Notes: a model not told the origin generated them from the letters alone. A stretch of DNA of 32,000 nucleotides from Crocosphaera subtropica ATCC 51142 (GCF_000017845.1 NC_010546.1:3570001-3602000), one strand, 5' to 3'. Positions 2,342 to 12,421 are shown, counted from the first letter of the stretch. Program-made: numbers and translations.

Positions 2342-2683
2342 CTAGTATTCACATTGAACACTACATGAATCTTTTGTACAAGTTTTTTTACCACATTTAC
2401 CTCCATCACATCTTGTACTACAACTATTAGTCCAGATTGTATTTCCATATTGGTCAATGCCACGACAACTAGCACCACAACTTACAGGACCTTTAGTATT
2501 TTCATCAGATATCAAGGAAACTTCAGTATCACACTCGGTAGTTATAATCTGATTCAAATTTCCTAATGGGTTTATTTCAGTTAGTGGAGTAAATATTTCA
2601 CTAGAAATAGGATCAGCGAATGCGCTAATTGTCAAAAAAGACAGTGTTAGAATTAAAACCAAAAATAATTTAATCACTTTCAT
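2342..2683 (-). CDS. Small secreted cysteine-rich protein of unknown function
   Basis: N-terminal Sec-type signal peptide (MKVIKLFLVLILTLSFLTISAFA/DP). The mature part has 9 Cys, including three CxxxC pairs and one Cx4C pair. I recognise no family. Confidence 0.55.
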   Translation of the reverse strand: MKVIKLFLVLILTLSFLTISAFADPISSEIFTPLTEINPLGNLNQIITTECDTEVSLISDENTKGPVSCGASCRGIDQYGNTIWTNSCSTRCDGGKCGKKTCTKDSCSVQCEY

Positions 2684-2947: not shown

Positions 2948-4417
2948 CTATAAATTGCCAAACCCTTTCTTTTTCTTGTTTTTCTTGGCTTTTTTCTTTT
3001 TACCACCCCCATAACCCCGAAATCCTGGGGGTGCGCTTTGACCAAACATTCCGCCCATTCCTGGCATTCCACCGCCCATTCCTGGCATTCCGCCACCCAT
3101 TCCTGGCATCGCTGGCATTCCCCCTTGTCCCATTTGCTGCATCATCCCCCGCATACGGGTGAAATTCTTAATTAGTTTACTGACTTCTGCTTCAGGATGC
3201 CCAGAACCTTGAGCAATACGACGGCGACGACTGGGAGATTTTGCTAATATATCAGGGTTTTTCCGTTCTTCTAGGGTCATCGAACTGATCATGGCTTCGG
3301 TACGTTTGAGTTCCCCTTCTCCTTTTTCAATATCCTTGGTACTCAGTTTATTCATCCCCGGAATCATCTTTAAAATGCTGCCAAAGGACCCCATATTTTT
3401 CATTAGGCGCATTTGTTTGAGGAAGTCGTTAAAGTCGAATTTTGCTTCTAAAATCTTCGACTGCATCTGTTCGACATCGGACAGATCAATCTCTTCTTGT
3501 GCCTTTTCAACTAAGGTTAAGACATCCCCCATACTCAAAATACGGGAAGCCATGCGATCGGGATAAAAGGGTTGTAAGGCTTCGACTTTTTCCCCAACCC
3601 CCACAAATTTAATGGGTTGCCCCGATATTTGGCGTACAGACAGGGCTGCACCCCCTCTGGTGTCCCCGTCCATTTTGGTTAAAATGGCTCCTGTAACCCC
3701 AATTTGGTCGTGAAAAGTACGGGTAAGGTTAGCTGCTTCTTGTCCCGTCATAGCATCGACAACGAGCAAAGTATCATCAGGGTTAACCGCTTTTTTGACA
3801 CGGGCTAACTCTAACATCATCTCTTCGTCTATTTGCAGTCGCCCGGCGGTGTCAATAATAACCGTATCAATGCCCATTTCTTTGGCTTTTTCGACCCCTT
3901 GGGTGGCAATATCAACGGGGTTGGCCTGGTTTCCGAGTTCAAAAACAGGAACCTCTATTTGTTCGCCGAGGGTGACCAACTGATCGATCGCAGCCGGACG
4001 ATAGATATCCGTGGCTACCATCAAAGCAGTTCGTTGTTGTTTACGCAAATATAGGGCAAGTTTAGCGGTAGCGGTAGTTTTACCTGTTCCTTGTAACCCG
4101 GCCATTAAAATGACGGTGGGAGCATTTTCTGCCTGTGCTAGAGGAACGTTACTTTCCCCCATCACTTTGACTAATTCATCGTAGACAATTTTGATCAATT
4201 GTTGGCCAGGGTTGACCCCGGCGATCACTTCTGCACCGATCGCAGCTTTTTCCACATCTGCAATGAAGGTTTTAACCACTTGCAGGTTAACGTCTGCTTC
4301 TAAGAGGGCCCGACGCACCTCTTTTAAAGCATCTTGCATATTGGCTTCGGTGATCTTATCTTGACCCCGTAATTTTTTCCAAGCGTCTTCTAAGCGATCG
4401 GCGAGAGCATCAAACAT
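2948..4417 (-). CDS. ffh: Signal recognition particle protein Ffh (SRP54)
   Basis: N-domain, then G-domain motifs GLQGTGKTT, DTAGR, TKMDGD. Met/Gly-rich M-domain tail and a Lys-rich C-terminus. Confidence 0.97.
   Translation of the reverse strand: MFDALADRLEDAWKKLRGQDKITEANMQDALKEVRRALLEADVNLQVVKTFIADVEKAAIGAEVIAGVNPGQQLIKIVYDELVKVMGESNVPLAQAENAPTVILMAGLQGTGKTTATAKLALYLRKQQRTALMVATDIYRPAAIDQLVTLGEQIEVPVFELGNQANPVDIATQGVEKAKEMGIDTVIIDTAGRLQIDEEMMLELARVKKAVNPDDTLLVVDAMTGQEAANLTRTFHDQIGVTGAILTKMDGDTRGGAALSVRQISGQPIKFVGVGEKVEALQPFYPDRMASRILSMGDVLTLVEKAQEEIDLSDVEQMQSKILEAKFDFNDFLKQMRLMKNMGSFGSILKMIPGMNKLSTKDIEKGEGELKRTEAMISSMTLEERKNPDILAKSPSRRRRIAQGSGHPEAEVSKLIKNFTRMRGMMQQMGQGGMPAMPGMGGGMPGMGGGMPGMGGMFGQSAPPGFRGYGGGKKKKAKKNKKKKGFGNL
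3051..3113. repeat. In-frame 21-bp tandem repeat inside ffh (encodes GMPGMGG units)
   Basis: CCGCCCATTCCTGGCATTCCA and CCGCCCATTCCTGGCATTCCG are adjacent, followed by a degenerate third unit. Confidence 0.7.
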
Positions 4418-4427
4418 AAGGCTTTTA
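4237..4427. repeat. Direct repeat copy 1 (ffh codons 1-60 plus 10 nt of 5' UTR), part of the intact ffh
   Basis: 187/191 nt identical to 6784-6974 in the same orientation. Confidence 0.97.
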
Positions 4428-4484
4428 CTGTGTTAGATTGTTGTTCGAGTATTCTAATTGTACTAGATCGATTATGATGCTTTC

Positions 4485-4514
4485 TTTATATTTTTTTATC
4501 GCTGATAAAGCTAA
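4485..4514 (-). promoter_or_regulatory. Weak candidate promoter for intact ffh, located inside the cassette
   Basis: On the minus strand: TTAGCT (4509-4514), an 18-nt spacer, then TATAAA (4485-4490), about 70 nt upstream of the ffh ATG. Sequence match only. Confidence 0.2.
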
Positions 4515-4566
4515 TAAACTTTTATTATAATGGTACTAATCAGAAGTTTCGAGAAGGAAACTTGAC

Positions 4567-5952
4567 ATGGGTACCAAAATTACAGTTCGAGAAGCAGCTT
4601 CTATTCTAAAACTTACTGAACAGTATGTTCGGACTCTTTGTCGAAATAGGCTACTTCACTCTCAAAAGATTGGAAGAATGTGGCTTATTGAAGAAGAAAG
4701 TATGTTGCAGTATGGGCTAAGGACAGCACACTATGTTGCAGAAGATCATACAATTTACAACAATCAAAAAAGTAGACCCATTGCAATTAGCTTTTTTTCT
4801 GGAGCAATGGGTTTAGATATAGGAATAGAACAAGCAGGTTTTGATATAAAATTAGCTTGTGAAATTGATAAATATTGTCGTCAAACTATTGCCTTAAATA
4901 AGCCTAATATAGCTTTAGTTGGAGATATAAATAGTTGTTCAGCAGATGATATTCTTTCGTATGCAGGGTTAACTCGTTCGGATGATATTGATTTAATTGT
5001 TGGAGGTCCTCCTTGTCAAGCATTTAGCACCGCAGGAAAAAGAAATGGATTAAACGATAATAGAGGAAATATATTTCTCACTTACCTAACTATTATTTTT
5101 GATATTCGACCCAAATATTTTGTCATTGAAAATGTCCGTGGACTATTATCTTGTCCCCTAAAACATAGACCTCATAATATGAGAGGGACAGAGTTTCCCA
5201 ATTTAACTTTTGACGAGCTTCCAGGTGGTGCTTTAAATTTTGTCCTTAGCCTTGTGAGAAACAATGGCTATTCGTTCTCATTTAATCTGTACAACAGCGC
5301 AAATTTTGGAACACCTCAAATAAGAGAACGAGTTGTCATAATCTGTTCAAGAAATGGAGAAAAACCTCCATTTTTAATACCGACTCACTCAGAAAAGGGA
5401 CAATATGGACTTAAAAAATGGAAAACATTTAGACAAGCAACAAAAGGAATTGATAAGCATCATCACTTAACATTTCCTGAAAAGCGATTAAAGTATTACA
5501 AAATGCTTTCAGAAGGACAAAACTGGAAGTCTTTACCTAAAAATTTACAAAAAGAAGCACTAGGAAAATCTTACTATGCAGGTGGTGGAAAAACAGGTTT
5601 TCTGCGTCGACTTTCATGGAATAAACCATCTCCTACTCTAGTAACTCATCCCGCTATGCCTGCCACCGACTTAGCTCATCCACAAGAGAATAGACCTCTA
5701 TCTATCGAAGAGTATAAAAGAATACAAGAATTTCCTGATGACTGGCAATTGGCTGGCCCTCTTATTCAACAATATAAACAAATAGGGAATGCTGTACCCA
5801 TAAGTTTGGGGAAAGCAGTAGGCTTATTAATAATGAAACTTTTAAATCAGGAGAATATTCCAGATTATTCTAATTTTAGTTTTTCAAGATATAAAAATAC
5901 TAGCGATACAGAATGGCAAACCAAGTTTGAAAGTACATCTTCTAATTTATGA
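4567..5952 (+). CDS. DNA (cytosine-5)-methyltransferase with an N-terminal excisionase/MerR-type HTH domain
   Basis: C5-MTase motifs: I FSGAMGLDIG, IV GGPPCQAFS, VI ENVRGLL, VIII FGTPQIRERV, X QIGNAVP. Residues about 5-50 (ITVREAASILKLTEQYVRTLCRNRLLHSQKIGRMWLI) look like an HTH_17 domain. Confidence 0.93.
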   Translation: MGTKITVREAASILKLTEQYVRTLCRNRLLHSQKIGRMWLIEEESMLQYGLRTAHYVAEDHTIYNNQKSRPIAISFFSGAMGLDIGIEQAGFDIKLACEIDKYCRQTIALNKPNIALVGDINSCSADDILSYAGLTRSDDIDLIVGGPPCQAFSTAGKRNGLNDNRGNIFLTYLTIIFDIRPKYFVIENVRGLLSCPLKHRPHNMRGTEFPNLTFDELPGGALNFVLSLVRNNGYSFSFNLYNSANFGTPQIRERVVIICSRNGEKPPFLIPTHSEKGQYGLKKWKTFRQATKGIDKHHHLTFPEKRLKYYKMLSEGQNWKSLPKNLQKEALGKSYYAGGGKTGFLRRLSWNKPSPTLVTHPAMPATDLAHPQENRPLSIEEYKRIQEFPDDWQLAGPLIQQYKQIGNAVPISLGKAVGLLIMKLLNQENIPDYSNFSFSRYKNTSDTEWQTKFESTSSNL

Positions 5953-5986
5953 CTGTTTAAATTATATTTTTCCCACAGAGATATTA

Positions 5987-6688
5987 TTACTTTTGATAAT
6001 TTCTGTGTCTTTTTTCTTCATCTAAATATTGCCTCACAAAATTTATAAAACCTTGTTCATTCAAAGAATAACCCTGCATTGATGGTGGAAGATTATCCCA
6101 ATTAGTTTTTCCAGTTTTAGAAAATGACCGAAACCATTTTTGAATTGGAGTTCCATTCCGAATAGCACTACTCGAAGAGTTTTCTGAGTTATCTCTATTC
6201 TTTATCTGCAAGGGTAACCATGTTCCATCATCATTTCGGCGAATAAAATCAATTGCTTTGACAAAATTTCCACAACACCAATGCCAACCATTTGAGCGAA
6301 GTACCGAGTCAAGATATCTTTCCAAAAGCGCACCAACACAGTTTTCTGCACACATTGAATGTTGATGCTCAAGTTTGATTTGATTACACTGTTCTTCGCT
6401 ATATCCATAAGCCACTTGCATAACAACGCTAACGATTTCATCAGGGACTGTTTGTGGTATTGCTGGAAAATCGGACTTTCTATAACCATCAAAATATTTT
6501 TGAGCCAATATATTTAATCCTTCATCATTAAAGACAGAAGGCTTTTTTTTACCTCTCCAAGATAAAAATATTGGGTTATCTGAGAGAAAACAACATACTT
6601 CAGTAAATGATACAATTAGGCTTCTCTCATCTTCTGTTATTGCAGTATTTTCTGCAATTGTCTGAGCCATTGCTTGATTGAATTCCAC
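5987..6688 (-). CDS. Putative type II restriction endonuclease, partner of the adjacent C5-MTase
   Basis: Assigned from context only. It is tail-to-tail with the MTase (34-bp gap), within the same inserted cassette, and I can name no recognisable family. The track start is GTG at 6688, with AGAGGA upstream. An alternative ATG lies at 6670. Confidence 0.5.
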   Translation of the reverse strand: MEFNQAMAQTIAENTAITEDERSLIVSFTEVCCFLSDNPIFLSWRGKKKPSVFNDEGLNILAQKYFDGYRKSDFPAIPQTVPDEIVSVVMQVAYGYSEEQCNQIKLEHQHSMCAENCVGALLERYLDSVLRSNGWHWCCGNFVKAIDFIRRNDDGTWLPLQIKNRDNSENSSSSAIRNGTPIQKWFRSFSKTGKTNWDNLPPSMQGYSLNEQGFINFVRQYLDEEKRHRNYQK

Positions 6689-6778
6689 TTTTAAGGTGTC
6701 CTCTTGAGAAATTCGTAAAAATCAGATTACTTTAAATCATACTGATTGCACAGGGAAAAGTCTCTAGATAACGATTAA

Positions 6779-6964
6779 TTAGGCGATCGCAGCTTTTTCT
6801 ACATCTGCAATGAAGGTTTTAACCACTTGCAAGTTAACGTCTGCTTCTAAGAGGGCCCGACGCACCTCTTTTAAAGCGTCTTGCATATTGGCTTCGGTGA
6901 TCTTATCTTGACCCCGTAATTTTTTCCAAGCGTCTTCTAGGCGATCGGCGAGAGCATCAAACAT
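6779..6964 (-). pseudogene. Truncated duplicate of the ffh 5' end (codons 1-60, then A-stop)
   Basis: The first 60 residues are identical to intact Ffh. The ORF ends at the repeat/cassette junction, which coincides with a HIP1 site (GCGATCGC, 6783-6790). Confidence 0.92.
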
Positions 6965-6974
6965 AAGGCTTTTA
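6784..6974. repeat. Direct repeat copy 2 (ffh 5' fragment attached to the ancestral upstream region)
   Basis: 187/191 nt identical to 4237-4427. Confidence 0.97.
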
Positions 6975-7026
6975 AATTGTTCGGTTACTATTTAATGTTA
7001 TTTTCCTACTTCTTTCAGTTTACTTT

Positions 7027-7056
7027 ATTTTAGAACAAATCAACTAGATAATCTAG
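7027..7056 (-). promoter_or_regulatory. Candidate ancestral ffh promoter overlapped by the palindrome CTAGAT-A-ATCTAG
   Basis: On the minus strand: TAGATT (7050-7055), a 17-nt spacer, then TAAAAT (7027-7032). A 13-bp palindrome sits at 7044-7056. Sequence match only. Confidence 0.25.
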
Positions 7057-7161
7057 GGAAATGTTACGTTTAAGAAAATAGTCCCTAAACACTTAGCCAC
7101 GGGACATAAAATCTAATTAGAAGTTTAACCTATATTAATTTAACAAAAAATAGACTAATTT

Positions 7162-8124
7162 TCAATTCTTTTGAGGATAAACACCGCTTAATTTCATGAC
7201 ATCTTCAATAGTTGTGCAGTAATTATCCATGCCAAAGGTTGCAGGGGTGACGGTATCTTTATAAGTAAAATGTCGATAATTAATAGAAAAATAGTCCCAG
7301 TCTTCCATGCGTAAACGAAAGGCTTTAATAAAGAAGTTGATTAAGAAAATATACAAAGGAATGCGAAAATAAATTCTTTTATTGAGATAGTCACAAATCT
7401 TTTCTATGGCTTCGTTAACCGTTGTTTTTTGATTCCCTAAAACTAAATTCTTATTCTCTGATTCAGTGGGAGGATTTTCCACTAAATATTTAATGATTTT
7501 AGCGATATCTCTAGCATGAATATAATGAAAACTTCCATCAGCTTTAAACCAACGAATGAGATCAATCCATCTAATTACATCTTTAATGCCACCTGAGAGA
7601 TGAGAATAGGGTTTATTGAATTCACCACCGAAGACTAATGTAGGGAATACTGTAGTAATTTTATTATAAAATGGTAGATTGTTTAACTGAGTAAAACATT
7701 GATATTTTGTTCTTATATAATTCGTTCCTAATGTTCCTGCTTCGGGTAAAGGCTGATTATTTTGATCTAAAATACTGGCGGTAGAAAAGTAAATAATTTG
7801 TTCACAAACTTCGGGATCTAATAGTTTCATTAATCCGATTGTTTTGGTGACATTAATTTCAAAAGATTCATTAATTCCACCCCAACTGGTCGCAGCTAAA
7901 ATAGCAACATTAACTGTCTTCAAAAAGTCACTAAATTTTTCAAGATTTTGTAAATCGCCAATGATAAGATGAACATTGGGCCGACTTTGATAATGAAACT
8001 GTAGTTTCTCAGGATTCCTGACTAAAAAATAAAGTTCATGATCGGTTTCTTGGATCAAAGCTTCTGCCATATAATGACCAATACAACCGCTAGAGCCTGT
8101 AATAAAAATACGCTTCATTAACAC
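7162..8124 (-). CDS. NAD(P)-dependent epimerase/dehydratase family (extended SDR) protein
   Basis: N-terminal Rossmann motif ITGSSGCIGHY. Length and layout are typical of extended SDRs. Confidence 0.75.
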   Translation of the reverse strand: MLMKRIFITGSSGCIGHYMAEALIQETDHELYFLVRNPEKLQFHYQSRPNVHLIIGDLQNLEKFSDFLKTVNVAILAATSWGGINESFEINVTKTIGLMKLLDPEVCEQIIYFSTASILDQNNQPLPEAGTLGTNYIRTKYQCFTQLNNLPFYNKITTVFPTLVFGGEFNKPYSHLSGGIKDVIRWIDLIRWFKADGSFHYIHARDIAKIIKYLVENPPTESENKNLVLGNQKTTVNEAIEKICDYLNKRIYFRIPLYIFLINFFIKAFRLRMEDWDYFSINYRHFTYKDTVTPATFGMDNYCTTIEDVMKLSGVYPQKN

Positions 8125-8330
8125 CTTGCTAATTAAACTCCGTCAAACAACGACGGCTTGACGATACTAATTTAGCATAATCTGAAATTCTGAGCGTATC
8201 AATAAACATAATACAAGTTTTTGGAGACAAACAATCTTTTTACCGTATCACCTCATTTGTCAGTTGCTTTCTTATGATTATTCAGTTTGTTTGTCAGGCG
8301 TGCAAGATGTCAGTTTTATGGACCAACAGA

Positions 8331-8358
8331 TTGCCTCTCCTAGTATTAGGAAAGGCAA
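8331..8358 (-). terminator. Candidate hairpin downstream of the divergent psbA
   Basis: 11-bp stem with one mismatch (TTGCCTCTCCT/AGGAAAGGCAA) and a 6-nt loop, 24 nt after the stop. No clear U-tract. Confidence 0.35.
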
Positions 8359-8381
8359 GTTCAAATAGATTTCATAGGTTA

Positions 8382-9452
8382 TTAACTGATCACTGTAGCC
8401 TTACCACTGGCTAAGGTTAAAGGAAAGTGATGAGTATTCGGAGCGTGCATCGAACGAATTCCTAGATTAGCACGATTGAGAAGATCCGCTTCTGTGGGAA
8501 TTGTTCTACCTTGACTATCAAGAATGGATTGATTAAAGTTAAACCCGTTTAAATTGAAAGCCATCACGCTAATTGCAGCCGATGCACACCAAATTCCTAC
8601 CACTGGAATGGATGCTAACAGAAAATGAACGGAACGGCTATTTTTGAAGCCCAAGCTAGGGATGAGAAGACGGCCTAAATAGCCTAGATGTCCAGCAACC
8701 AGATTATAAGTGGCCTCTTGTTGACCAAAATGGTATCCTTGATTGATTGATTCACGGACAGTTGTTTCCCGTATGAGACTAGAAGTCACTAAAGAACCGT
8801 GTAACGCAGCTAAAACCGCTCCAGTAAAGATACCTGCAACCCCTAACATATGCAATGGGTGCATCAAAATATTATGGTCAGCTTGAAACGCTAACATAAA
8901 GTGAAACGTGCCACTAATACCTAACGGCATTCCTTCGGAAAAACTGCCTTGTCCCAGAGGATAAACGAGAAAGATAGAAGTAGCAGCAGCTACAGGGGCA
9001 GAAAAAGCGACGGAAATCCAAGGCCGCATTCCTAATCGATAACTTAATTCCCATAAACGCCCTAAATAGCACCAAATCCCGATTAAAAAGTGACAAATGA
9101 TCAATTGATAAGGTCCCCCATTATAGAGCCATTCATCAATCGAAGCAGCTTCCCAGATGGGATAAAAATGTAATCCAATGGCAGCCGAAGTTGGGATCAC
9201 AGCAGCACTGATGAGGTTATTACCCCCCAAGAGGGAACCAATAATCGGTTCTCTGATTCCTTCCATATCAACTGGGGGAGCCACCAAAAAAGCCAGAATA
9301 AAACTAATGGTAGCCACTAGCAGTGTTGGGATCATTAAGACTCCAAACCAACCAATGTAAAGGCGTTGATTGGTACTGGTGATCCATTCACAAAAGTTTG
9401 ACCACAGTTGACCGAAATCGAGTTCTTTTTGGCGAGGAAATACATTGGTCAT
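8382..9452 (-). CDS. psbA: Divergent photosystem II D1 paralogue (rogue/sentinel D1 type)
   Basis: Collinear with D1 over its full length ([69 protein letters not shown]). Mn-cluster ligand positions are substituted. Strong SD (TAGGAGGA) upstream. Confidence 0.9.
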
Positions 9453-10580: not shown

Positions 10581-11061
10581 ATGCCTAAACAAGCTTTCAT
10601 TGCTCCTCATTTAAGTACAGAAGAACTTAAAGAAAAATATCGCAAGGCGAAAGACTCAGTAGAAGCTAGAAGGTGGCACTTTTTGTGGAAAGTTGCTAAT
10701 GGTTGGACAGTCAAAAATAGTGCCATAGCCGTAGGAATTAGTAATAGTTATGGATGGAAAATTTTAAAAAGCTATAACGGAAAAGGAATTGAAGGAGTGA
10801 ATAATGAAAAGAAAGAACGTCAAGAACATTCAAGAGGATTTATCCCCTTATTGAATGATGAACAATTTCAAAAACTAACAAAAGTAATTAAAAAGAAATC
10901 CCCTGATGGTGGATTATGGACAGGTCCGAAGGTAGCACGGTGGATAGAAAAAGAAACAGGAAGAAAAAAAGTTTGGAATCAAAGGGGGTGGGATTATTTA
11001 AAAAAGCTCAAATATTCCTGGCAGAAACCGAGACCGAAACATAGAAAAGGTGATAGTATAG
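10581..11061 (+). pseudogene. IS630-family transposase, N-terminal HTH part only, truncated by the ISAs1 insertion
   Basis: HTH/winged-helix region typical of IS630 ORFs (LWTGPKVARWIEKETGRKKVWNQRGWDYLKKLKYSWQKPRPKH). No DDE domain. The reading frame runs into the IS left inverted repeat and stops at its TAA. Confidence 0.75.
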
Positions 11062-12421
11062 CAGGGTAAGCTCATCTAAAATGGTATAAAATGTACTTGA
11101 CTAAGAAAGTAAAGTCTAGGTGAGGCAAAAAGGGACTTAAAATAAAAAAACAAAGTACAATTAGGACTTTCGTAATTATGGAATCAGAACATGGCCAAGG
11201 GGTTTGCAGACCAAAAACAATCTAGTAAGAAAAAAAAGGAAAAGGGAAATATAGCATCTATTGATGAAATCCAAAACAATTTATTAGGCTATGTCAAAGA
11301 AATAGAAGATCCTAGAGTACAAAGAAGCAAAAAACACCTCCTTAAAGATGTATTGGCGATCGCTATATTGGCAGTCATTGCAGGGTCCCAAGGTTGGGAA
11401 GATATGGAGAACTATGGTATCGCAAAACAGGAGTGGTTATCAGAGTTTCTAGAACTCCCTCACGGAATCCCGAGTGATGACACATTTAGAAGAGTTTTTG
11501 AGAGAATTGATCCAGAATCGCTGCAAAAATGCCTACAAAAATGGGTTCAATCTATAATGAATTCAATTCAAGGAGAAATTATCCCCATCGATGGCAAAAC
11601 ATTAAGGGGTTCTTACGATCGCAACGCCGGACAGTGCGCTTTATATACGGTCACAGCGTGGGCATCCCAGCAGAGTCTGGTGTTAGGACAAGTCAAAGTT
11701 GAAAACTACTCCAATGAAATTACGGCCATTCCTGCCTTACTCGAACTATTAGACATTACAGGCTCGATCATTACCATTGATGCAATGGGAACTCAAACCA
11801 GCATTATCCAACAAATTTGTCGGCAAAAAGCTGACTACATTGTTACTCTCAAAGCTAACCATCCTACTTTATTTTCTCAAGTCAAGCAATGGTTTACTGA
11901 TACCCAAAACAATGGCTGGGATGGCATTGAACATGATTACTACAAAAGTGTAACCAAGGGCCACCACCGCACCGAGAAACGATACGTTTGGGCTATACCA
12001 GTAGCAGCTATGGGAGAGCTTTACCAGCAACAACAATGGCATGGACTGCAAACTATTGTCGTAGTCGAACGCATCCGTCACTTGTGGAACAAGACTACCC
12101 ACGATATTCAGTTTTATCTGACCTCTTTACCTCCCAATGCCCAATTCCTTTGCCATGCGATCCGCACCCATTGGAGCATTGAGAATAACCTTCATTGGAC
12201 ACTCGATGTCACTTTTTCTGAAGATCAATGCCGTATTCGGTCAGAATATAGTCCACAGAACTTTGCTCTTCTAAGACGATTGGCTCTTAATGTTCTCCAT
12301 CAAGAAAAAACATTTAAACGTAGTCTTCGCCAGAAAATGAAGCAAGCTGCTATGAACAACAACTATATGATGACTGTTCTCAATTCCTTCTGTCAAGCGG
12401 ATTTTAGATGAGCTTACCCTG
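11062..12421 (+). mobile_element. ISAs1-family insertion sequence, 1360 bp, apparently intact
   Basis: Perfect 21-bp terminal inverted repeats CAGGGTAAGCTCATCTAAAAT (11062-11082 and, as reverse complement, 12401-12421) enclose a single transposase ORF. Confidence 0.9.
11191..12411 (+). CDS. ISAs1-family (H-repeat-associated) transposase
   Basis: The N-terminal motif DPRVQRSKKHLLKDVLAIAILAVIAGSQGWEDMENYG is the DDE_Tnp_1-associated domain. A DDE core follows (IPIDGKTLRGS, ITIDAMGTQ, HWSIENNLHW). Confidence 0.9.
   Translation: MAKGFADQKQSSKKKKEKGNIASIDEIQNNLLGYVKEIEDPRVQRSKKHLLKDVLAIAILAVIAGSQGWEDMENYGIAKQEWLSEFLELPHGIPSDDTFRRVFERIDPESLQKCLQKWVQSIMNSIQGEIIPIDGKTLRGSYDRNAGQCALYTVTAWASQQSLVLGQVKVENYSNEITAIPALLELLDITGSIITIDAMGTQTSIIQQICRQKADYIVTLKANHPTLFSQVKQWFTDTQNNGWDGIEHDYYKSVTKGHHRTEKRYVWAIPVAAMGELYQQQQWHGLQTIVVVERIRHLWNKTTHDIQFYLTSLPPNAQFLCHAIRTHWSIENNLHWTLDVTFSEDQCRIRSEYSPQNFALLRRLALNVLHQEKTFKRSLRQKMKQAAMNNNYMMTVLNSFCQADFR

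Follow-up and report, generated by a model that had tools for sequence, protein, structure and literature searches.

How restriction-modification (R-M) genes move without a recombinase of their own is still poorly understood. The closest described mode (Nobusato et al. 2000) is known as 'R-M insertion with long target duplication', and is recognised by a restriction gene (R) and a modification gene (M) in an insert of <20 kb, by the lack of mobility genes, and by flanking direct repeats of >30 bp that match a single stretch in a related genome lacking the insert; repeats of 46-423 bp have been reported, including one of 88 bp in Microcystis (Furuta, Abe & Kobayashi 2010, PMC2853133). This mode has so far been inferred only from pairwise genome comparisons. 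Here we describe a locus within a 32,000-nt stretch of Crocosphaera subtropica ATCC 51142 (NC_010546.1:3570001-3602000; hereafter the window, the numbering of which is used throughout), where an R-M pair lies between the complete ffh gene and a second copy of the start of ffh. The locus is a clear new example of this known mode of R-M settlement: its 2.4-kb insert holds R and M and no mobility gene, and its 191-nt repeats, the length of which falls within 46-423 bp, align to one copy in Cyanothece sp. BG0011. The match concerns the operational definition of the class; that the repeats arose by duplication at the insertion itself is a possibility only. The locus differs from the described class in four respects: the repeat spans the promoter, leader and codons 1-60 of an essential gene; the endonuclease sits behind a second ffh-type promoter; the homology runs beyond the near-identical part, in the form of two alleles; and the arrangement is found in two species, with an R-M core that is far younger than its flanks. 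On balance, we think it probable that an R-M module was placed here by one founding rearrangement that depended on recombination, and that it spread between species later.

A repeat search returned a single family of long direct repeats, at 4237-4439 and 6784-6986 (96% identity over 203 nt). Pairwise alignment of 4237-4427 to 6784-6974 gave 187/191 identical positions, with similarity lost abruptly at 4236/6783 and falling off past 4427/6974, in agreement with the 191-nt direct duplication reported in a preliminary description of this DNA. Since the remaining repeats within 3000-8500 are at most 32 nt long and at most 82% identical, a chance origin is excluded. Copy A (4237-4427, minus strand) covers the last 10 nt of the leader (-10 to -1) and nt 1-181, that is codons 1-60, of the full ffh gene. 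That gene is intact (2948-4417, minus strand; TIGR00959 ffh equivalog, 611 bits) and encodes a signal recognition particle (SRP) GTPase of 489 amino acids with SRP54_N, SRP54 and SRP_SPB domains, which shares 95-99% amino acid identity with other Crocosphaera Ffh proteins. At 3042-3124, short periodic repeats with spacings of 21 and 30 nt encode its Gly/Met-rich C-terminal tail (GGMPGMGGG...). Copy B (6784-6974, minus strand), with the same leader positions and nt 1-181, starts a stump open reading frame (ORF) of 61 codons (6779-6964, minus strand) that matches SRP54_N at 9e-18.

The window is matched at 100% identity by four independent Logan assemblies (SRR26036484/86/88/89), the contigs of which run on from the last copy-specific base for exactly 30 nt (k-1) and end there, at 4398 and, counted from the copy-B-specific T6800, at 6830. 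This is the behaviour of a de Bruijn graph when both copies are present, and the duplication is thus not an assembly artefact. The copies differ at ffh nt 25, 87, 133 and 165, synonymously in every case. Copy A of ATCC 51142 has T87, C133 and G165, derived states when set against the alleles of BG0011, SU3 and CCY0110. T87 and G165 are shared with the relative MO188 and C133 is the state of most other lineages; by outgroup comparison, three of the four changes fall on this functional copy. We had considered whether four synonymous changes (P ~0.014) mean that both copies evolved as functional genes, but dropped this argument because three of them lie on functional copy A, which makes the pattern non-discriminating.

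The 2356 nt between the copies hold two main ORFs, for a methyltransferase of 461 amino acids and an endonuclease of 233 amino acids; the only further ORFs of at least 50 codons, one of 96 amino acids on the same strand in another frame and one of 52 on the opposite strand, both lie inside the R region. No transposase or integrase ORF occurs in the insert, and inverted repeats in the region reach at most 26 nt and 76% complementarity, so that a transposon, an integron and an integrase island are ruled out. The preliminary description, which had listed only a methyltransferase and a convergent 233-codon ORF with no transposase or integrase, was correct on this point. Base composition does not mark the cassette off (GC 0.32-0.37, against 0.31-0.47 around it).

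The methyltransferase gene (4567-5952, plus strand) encodes a C5 cytosine DNA methyltransferase (PF00145, 4e-59) with an N-terminal helix-turn-helix (HTH) domain at residues 6-49 (PF12728 HTH_17, 8e-8), and also matches TIGR00675 dcm and PADLOC MTase_II (3.5e-122). Motifs I, IV (PC), VI (ENV), VIII and X are all legible in its translation, where FSGAMGLD, GGPPCQAFS, ENVRGL, QIRERV and GNAVP can be read. The endonuclease gene (5987-6688, minus strand) is convergent with it across a gap of 34 nt and encodes a type IIP endonuclease of the AvaII/SinI family (PF09570 RE_SinI, 1.3e-133, 218/218 model positions; PADLOC REase_II, 2e-126). AvaII is the sole relative with solved structures (6G3B/6S48/6S58), and residues 15-223 of the endonuclease match PDB 6G3B at E = 7e-51. 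AvaII cuts G^GWCC, with E123 and D147 in its active site, while M112 and E115 hold the metal ion that reads the central W (PMC7337904). In our alignment E123 and D147 are kept at the same positions, as are Q161-x-K163, M112 and E115. The pair therefore resembles AvaII of Anabaena variabilis and SinI of Salmonella Infantis in its RE_SinI endonuclease, its active-site residues and its C5-methyltransferase partner, and differs from them in that its specificity and methylated base are predictions. The closest endonuclease relatives outside Crocosphaera are 61-71% identical, and the protein shares a 90% cluster with those of ATCC 51142 and C. chwakensis CCY0110.

Pairing of R with a convergent M is kept in 9/9 distant metagenomic loci (44-67% identity), and in the five of nine that reach far enough the methyltransferase match begins at about residue 1, HTH region included. 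This pairing argues for a conserved two-gene module and not a solitary methyltransferase. The R-M identity assigned to the cassette in the preliminary description is thereby borne out by PF09570, by homology to AvaII, by PF00145 and by the pairing in the distant loci. We conclude that the module is a functional-looking type IIP R-M pair, probably of the AvaII/SinI (G^GWCC) type. From what is known of these families, the methyltransferase would methylate GGWCC and the endonuclease would cut unmethylated GGWCC. The window contains 21 GGWCC sites, compared to 41 +/- 6 in dinucleotide shuffles and 31 under a Markov model, and the ratio of observed to expected is the lowest of 14 control words, a scarcity that lends mild support to long exposure to such an enzyme.

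Repression of its own promoter by an HTH-methyltransferase is an established mode of regulation in SsoII, Ecl18kI, EcoRII and ScrFI (PMC3874152). The methyltransferase described here resembles the SsoII type in carrying an N-terminal HTH (PF12728) on a C5-methyltransferase and in the inverted repeat in its promoter-proximal leader, and family knowledge suggests that it probably represses its own promoter through the HTH. The candidate operator is an imperfect 20-nt inverted repeat (4531-4550/4557-4576) which spans the ribosome-binding site and ATG of the gene and, read by eye, is ~70% preserved in CCY0110. In contrast to the SsoII type, the genes are convergent and not divergent, and the methyltransferase gene therefore shares no intergenic promoter region with R through which its product could control that gene. 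Upstream of the gene lies a promoter-like CTGATA-18-TATAAT, with TATAAT at 4526-4531, which does not rise above shuffle expectation. At this edge of the cassette two promoter-like matches stand back to back, 4524-4552 (minus strand) and 4502-4531 (plus strand), and share the palindromic TTATTATAA; one points to the methyltransferase and the other to ffh, and neither is above shuffle expectation. As R lies downstream of the ffh-type promoter and the stump, and the promoter/terminator scan found no terminator-like site between stump and R, R is probably read from the duplicated ffh-type promoter upstream of the stump.

Does the locus exist in an empty form? The gene that anchors it on the left is cce_3476 (7162-8124, minus strand; 100% to ACB52824.1; Pfam Epimerase/NmrA), a member of the short-chain dehydrogenase/reductase (SDR)/epimerase family. 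When one genome per species was scanned with Ffh, eight Crocosphaera/Cyanothece loci were recovered (loci and contigs carry the prefix L in our numbering). The SDR gene adjoins ffh in Cyanothece sp. BG0011 and in the metagenome-assembled genome (MAG) MO_167.B6; in other Crocosphaera MAGs with close SDR homologs ffh does not lie beside the SDR gene, and these are uninformative. In BG0011 (L008), positions 5991-6182 are matched by both copies of the window and the flanks are contiguous, which is the single-copy site that the preliminary description predicted for related strains. The draft assembly of CCY0110 breaks inside the repeat: L086 ends with the SDR gene, the spacer and ffh up to nt 61, and L085 starts at ffh nt ~142 and continues with the endonuclease, the methyltransferase and a complete ffh. 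Two different ffh starts are thus present in CCY0110, which indicates the same order of stump, R-M and ffh as in the window. The spacer between SDR gene and stump in CCY0110 (L086 ~11060-11290) has ~170 + 36 extra nt, including a highly iterated palindrome 1 (HIP1) octamer, compared to ATCC 51142 and BG0011.

Between ATCC 51142 and CCY0110 the R-M genes are far more alike than their neighbours. Nucleotide identity is 98.0% for R and 97.2% for M, with third-position divergence of 3% and 5%, whereas ffh is 91.8% and the SDR gene 87.9% identical, with third-position divergence of 21% and 24%. Mismatches run at ~2.5 per 100 nt in 4600-6823 and mostly at 5-13 per 100 nt over the rest of ffh, except in its conserved first 120 nt. 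The R-M core is thus ~5-fold less diverged than its flanks, and has accordingly been exchanged between the lineages, or acquired from a common source, long after they split. This comparison shows that the R-M pair moved horizontally between species after their divergence. No further carrier of the R allele was found among 5.8 billion proteins (next best 71%) or in a metagenome scan (best 67%), and sliding-window comparison of ffh with the species representatives placed no crossover point, all relatives being at least 6% diverged.

The relation between the two ffh copies becomes clearer upstream of the near-identical segment. Beside the complete gene, between it and the methyltransferase promoter, lie 94 nt (4428-4521, minus strand; hereafter upA) that alignment to relatives identifies as ffh's own upstream DNA, shortened by a deletion of 13 nt compared to other species; local alignments of upA to MO188, MO199, MO167, Alani8 and SU3 score above all 200 shuffles. 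It carries AGTACAATT at 4456-4464. Each locus has a single occurrence of this promoter-like motif, in the sense orientation of ffh, and its position relative to the ffh ATG is exactly -60 in eight further Crocosphaera loci (SU3, MO188, MO199, MO167, XPORK-15E, CCY0110 copy A, L104 and L105), -57 in Alani8 and, owing to the 13-nt deletion, -47 in the window. The distal box of upA, AAGTTTATTAGCTTTATC, resembles TAGTTTATTTGTTCTA of the naive MO167 spacer. The preliminary description had placed the insertion in the 5' end of ffh; however, ffh is not disrupted, as it is complete and keeps ~94 nt of its own upstream DNA with AGTACAATT, a retained canonical promoter from which the complete gene would be read.

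On the stump side, the SDR-ffh intergenic region (6975-7161, minus strand; hereafter upB) is the syntenic ortholog of the naive spacer, colinear with that of MO167 (score 101, null maximum 30), with a ~27-nt deletion and a diverged promoter that lacks AGTACAATT. It is 91-98% identical to BG0011 and ~93% identical to CCY0110 copy B over the proximal 69 nt. upA and upB are only 48-51% identical, while the adjoining part from -10 to +181 is 98% identical; the same contrast is found between orthologs, with BG0011 and SU3 sharing 54% upstream and 97% over -10 to +181. Since both copies carry ffh upstream DNA, the homology extends over ~290 nt and not 191, and on the evidence of these alignments the homologous segment (about -100 to +181/195) has upstream halves that represent different alleles. 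With upstream halves ~50% identical, the locus does not fit a simple 191-bp target duplication that arose recently in this genome. Nor would recombination between the repeats restore the wild-type locus exactly, as had been suggested: it would leave ffh under the derived copy-B promoter, as in BG0011.

The first 181 nt are the most conserved part of ffh, with 94-97% identity between species compared to 85-92% for nt 182-600, and this conservation holds even between lineages that lack R-M (window 4237-4417 and its orthologs in L005-L012 and L085). Such a segment would make an efficient substrate for recombination across species. Copy B differs from BG0011 ffh at 2/191 positions and from copy A at 4/191. 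Identity of ATCC 51142 to BG0011 is 86% in the SDR gene, 93-99% across the tract that begins at the SDR 3' end and includes the whole stump, and ~90-93% over the rest of ffh; in CCY0110, upA is 96% identical to MO188 over -67 to -12. Read from these identities, the flanks of the R-M core appear to be mosaics of different alleles.

The two edges of the core, J1 on the endonuclease side and J2 on the methyltransferase side, speak to the number of founding events. At the left end of the core, the leader of R (6689-6771, minus strand) is ~96% identical between ATCC 51142 and CCY0110, and the original J1 junction with ffh lies at ~6767-6771 (TTATC). In CCY0110 this junction reads ..GCGATCGGTGCAGAAGTTATC|TAGAAAC.., the same sequence as in the window. 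At J2, the methyltransferase promoter and leader core (4522-4566, plus strand) is identical to CCY0110 at 43/45 positions up to just past TATAAT, after which the two are unalignable for 19-45 nt. The same J1 and the same core edge at J2 in both species point to a single founding rearrangement.

The preliminary description had noted that one junction coincides with a HIP1 palindrome at 6783-6790. The octamer, GCGATCGC, is indeed present, but the coincidence is secondary. Seven of its eight bases are the native ffh codons GCG ATC GGT, which are found in all relatives, and the eighth stems from a 12-nt replacement at 6772-6783 (minus strand) that an alignment of the window, CCY0110 and BG0011 shows to be specific to ATCC 51142 (ffh-sense CCTAATTAATCG, compared to GTGCAGAAG in CCY0110). 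The same replacement yields the in-frame TAA stop of the stump, one codon past HIP1. In CCY0110, copy B continues its ffh homology for 10-14 nt beyond the repeat edge of the window and has no HIP1 at the junction. HIP1 is moreover frequent in the window, with 12 copies compared to 0.1 expected. HIP1 as the recombination junction was therefore rejected: it consists of conserved ffh codons and a secondary 12-nt change, and is missing from the CCY0110 junction.

Based on these observations, we propose that in the founding rearrangement the module would have been joined to ffh at about +195 on the R side and about -100 on the M side, with no transposase involved. Most likely, the founding step combined a homologous anchor with one illegitimate joint, in a polyploid organism; a staggered cut-and-fill duplication in this genome is less likely. 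We favour a recombination-dependent origin because the copies behave as alleles, because the BG0011-like tract ends at J1, and because a high level of illegitimate recombination has been reported for strain 51142 (PMC4320622). Homologous recombination in the conserved flanks would later have carried the module from one Crocosphaera species to another, or homogenised it among them. The ends of the swept tract would have to lie in well-conserved sequence, which is available in the stump and, at the opposite edge, in the methyltransferase promoter. The least strained reading of this history is that of an old shared architecture in which the R-M core, and perhaps the stump side too, was swept later by homologous recombination. 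Recombination between the ffh copies would collapse the locus to a BG0011-type site and remove the R-M genes, an event that post-segregational killing would be expected to penalise. Two recombination systems bear a likeness to the proposed founding step, namely the homology-facilitated illegitimate recombination reportedly described by de Vries and Wackernagel in 2002 and the experimental 'resistance to replacement' of chromosomal R-M genes that Handa et al. are said to have demonstrated in 2001. Both involve one homologous anchor and one illegitimate joint, and survivors keep the R-M genes and part of the incoming allele, with duplications; the difference is that for Crocosphaera we infer a history only.

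Several observations weigh against this account. No single history fits all of the data, and each model fails somewhere. upA is only 61-69% identical between ATCC 51142 and CCY0110 although it lies between M (97%) and the start of ffh (96%), which calls either for an old shared structure in which only the R-M core was swept later, or for a replacement of upA at a later time. The R allele is known from two genomes, ATCC 51142 and CCY0110, so that the history is built on few taxa. The four synonymous differences between copies A and B look like those of two functional alleles, although they do not discriminate, three of them lying on copy A. The depletion of GGWCC is only 1.5- to 2-fold, in a 32-kb sample. 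Finally, the promoter/terminator scan returned 11 promoter-like sites compared to 10.4 expected, and its promoter assignments serve as description only.

Both founding mechanisms offered in the preliminary description, a long target duplication and a Campbell-type single crossover, survive as candidates; the features of the long-duplication class are found here, whereas a simple 191-bp duplication does not fit. The former, unlikely but tenable, would be a long target duplication in situ in the common ancestor of ATCC 51142, CCY0110 and BG0011, with joins at about -100 and +195 and ~300 bp duplicated. The stump promoter would then have decayed, or adapted to driving R, while the coding part of the stump was kept by gene conversion; BG0011 would have lost the R-M genes by recombination between the repeats and inherited the decayed promoter, and the R-M core would have been homogenised later. 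Such duplications are a documented class, with repeats of 46-423 bp and a cyanobacterium, Microcystis, among the cases. Sequence from the distal box to +181 is homologous in both copies, and J1 and J2 are common to both species; the complete gene keeps the canonical motif and it is the copy that no longer drives ffh that is derived, in both species. BG0011 has the derived promoter as well, unlike eight naive or differently loaded lineages. However, the stump promoter would have diverged to ~50% while the adjoining 191 nt stayed at 98% with zero non-synonymous changes, gene conversion would need to stop exactly at -10, and copy B differs less from the BG0011 gene (2/191) than from its partner in the same genome (4/191). 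In addition, the R-M core would have to be swept on its own at a later time.

The Campbell-type crossover, which we consider unlikely, would have involved a non-replicating circle that carried the R-M genes, ffh upstream DNA and ffh nt 1 to ~195, for example one excised from another lineage, and that entered each species independently by a single crossover in the 5' end of ffh. The resident promoter would then come to lie on the stump side and the donor promoter beside the complete gene. A donor-borne patch of homology is indeed present, as 4428-4521 continues the ffh homology inside copy A. This history explains why the R-M genes are much younger than their flanks yet sit at the same place with the same J1 and J2, why copy B, as the resident, is BG0011-like, and why copy A has the MO188-like T87 and G165. 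In CCY0110, copy A has the common states at those positions and an upstream region 96% identical to that of MO188, which fits a different crossover point, and the highly conserved nt 1-181 of ffh (94-97%, against 85-92%) would be a good homology arm. On the other hand, the circle should carry one upA, whereas the upA regions of the two species are 61-69% identical and differ in length at J2, and neither a circle nor a donor lineage with R-M upstream of ffh was found among the sampled sequences. An import of the stump together with the R-M genes as cargo, through homology-facilitated illegitimate recombination, would explain the species-specific upstream regions, but needs the same cassette-side breakpoint twice.

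A broader version, about which we are doubtful, is that the module and stump form a self-contained, recombination-driven mobile unit with the conserved 190 nt as a portable homology arm. If this were so, excision by recombination between the repeats and re-entry by single crossover would amount to a 'virus-like life cycle', the BG0011 ffh promoter would be an excision scar, and the endonuclease would be parked behind a copy of a housekeeping promoter. To our knowledge, such a life cycle of R-M systems has been proposed but never demonstrated.

We find it quite unlikely that the duplication arose in two steps, as a resisted replacement. Here the R-M genes would first have inserted simply in the spacer; an R-M-free allele, made up of the SDR gene, a B-type promoter and the 5' end of ffh, would later have recombined homologously at the SDR 3' end, with its broken end at ffh ~+195 joined illegitimately upstream of R, full replacement being lethal through post-segregational killing. 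The predicted footprint is visible, in that the identity between ATCC 51142 and BG0011 jumps from 86% to 93-99% at the SDR 3' end and this tract stops at J1. The stump-side spacer is colinear with the naive spacer, SU3, L104, L105 and C. watsonii have simple insertions at the same spot, strain 51142 recombines illegitimately at high frequency, and the geometry passes through no lethal intermediate. Yet J1 is common with CCY0110 and hence marks a single event, so that the divergent upA needs extra steps, as does the stump-side similarity of only 87-93% between ATCC 51142 and CCY0110; nor was a remnant of earlier cargo found in the spacers. Lastly, it is highly unlikely that the architecture is a neutral relic of a failing endonuclease and a de facto orphan methyltransferase: the higher ratios of non-synonymous to synonymous codon differences between the two species in R (7:7) and M (13:24) than in ffh (8:86) and the modest avoidance of GGWCC would suit such decay, but both ORFs are full length and cover their family models end to end in both species, all AvaII catalytic and metal-anchoring residues are kept, and the recent spread between species speaks for a module kept by selection or by its own selfish action.

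With the recombination-dependent origin as our preferred reading, the locus suggests that the repeats around an R-M insert need not be a fresh duplication, as here they appear to be different alleles of the same promoter and gene start. The spread of an addiction module would thereby be tied to the most conserved part of an essential gene, and the exchange of the module between species at a fixed locus beside that gene adds to its interest. The genus offers a natural series: two species with the same junctions, one collapsed site, and sisters in which this position holds a toxin-antitoxin pair or a DNA-repair gene, or is empty. ATCC 51142 is, furthermore, a model diazotroph that is hard to engineer, and a putative AvaII-type (GGWCC) barrier together with frequent illegitimate recombination bears on the design of transformation experiments. 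In the literature searched, we found no mention of this locus, of the locus tags cce_3472-3475, or of ATCC 51142 in connection with GGWCC.

Other lineages carry different cargo in the SDR-ffh spacer. Two of them, C. watsonii WH 8501 and the MAG locus L105, have a YefM-YoeB toxin-antitoxin pair there, in which a YoeB gene follows the YefM (Phd) antitoxin gene and leaves 15-40 nt up to the conserved promoter element of ffh; in the Logan assembly L104 only the antitoxin gene was called, and the sequence reads as an apparently degraded yoeB (YefM/YoeB coordinates: L104, 3425-3679; L105, 7284-7795; L106/L107, 6150-6613; L108, 1325-1788). In SU3 (L005 4817-5926) the spacer contains a gene for a protein with an AraC-type HTH, resembling methylated-DNA-protein-cysteine methyltransferases (Ada/Ogt-like), which shows a PCHRV motif and sits between the SDR gene and the ffh promoter, where ATCC 51142 has the stump and the R-M genes. 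MO167 and BG0011 have no cargo in the spacer. The differing cargo of sister lineages indicates that the SDR-ffh spacer is permissive and has been hit recurrently. No duplication of ffh was seen beside the toxin-antitoxin or Ada/Ogt-like insertions, and a search of both spacers in the window for a YefM-YoeB remnant gave no score above shuffles.

Two further genes border the locus. Just downstream of ffh, in a low-GC (0.32) patch, an ORF of 113 amino acids (2342-2683, minus strand) encodes a cysteine-rich protein with a signal-peptide-like N-terminus and no Pfam match; no relative examined shows synteny downstream of ffh. Directly upstream of cce_3476, a gene at 8382-9452 (minus strand) encodes a D1-like reaction-centre protein (PF00124, 6e-89) that is divergent and has an unusual N-terminus; from the gene numbering, it is probably the atypical psbA4, or 'sentinel D1', of this strain.

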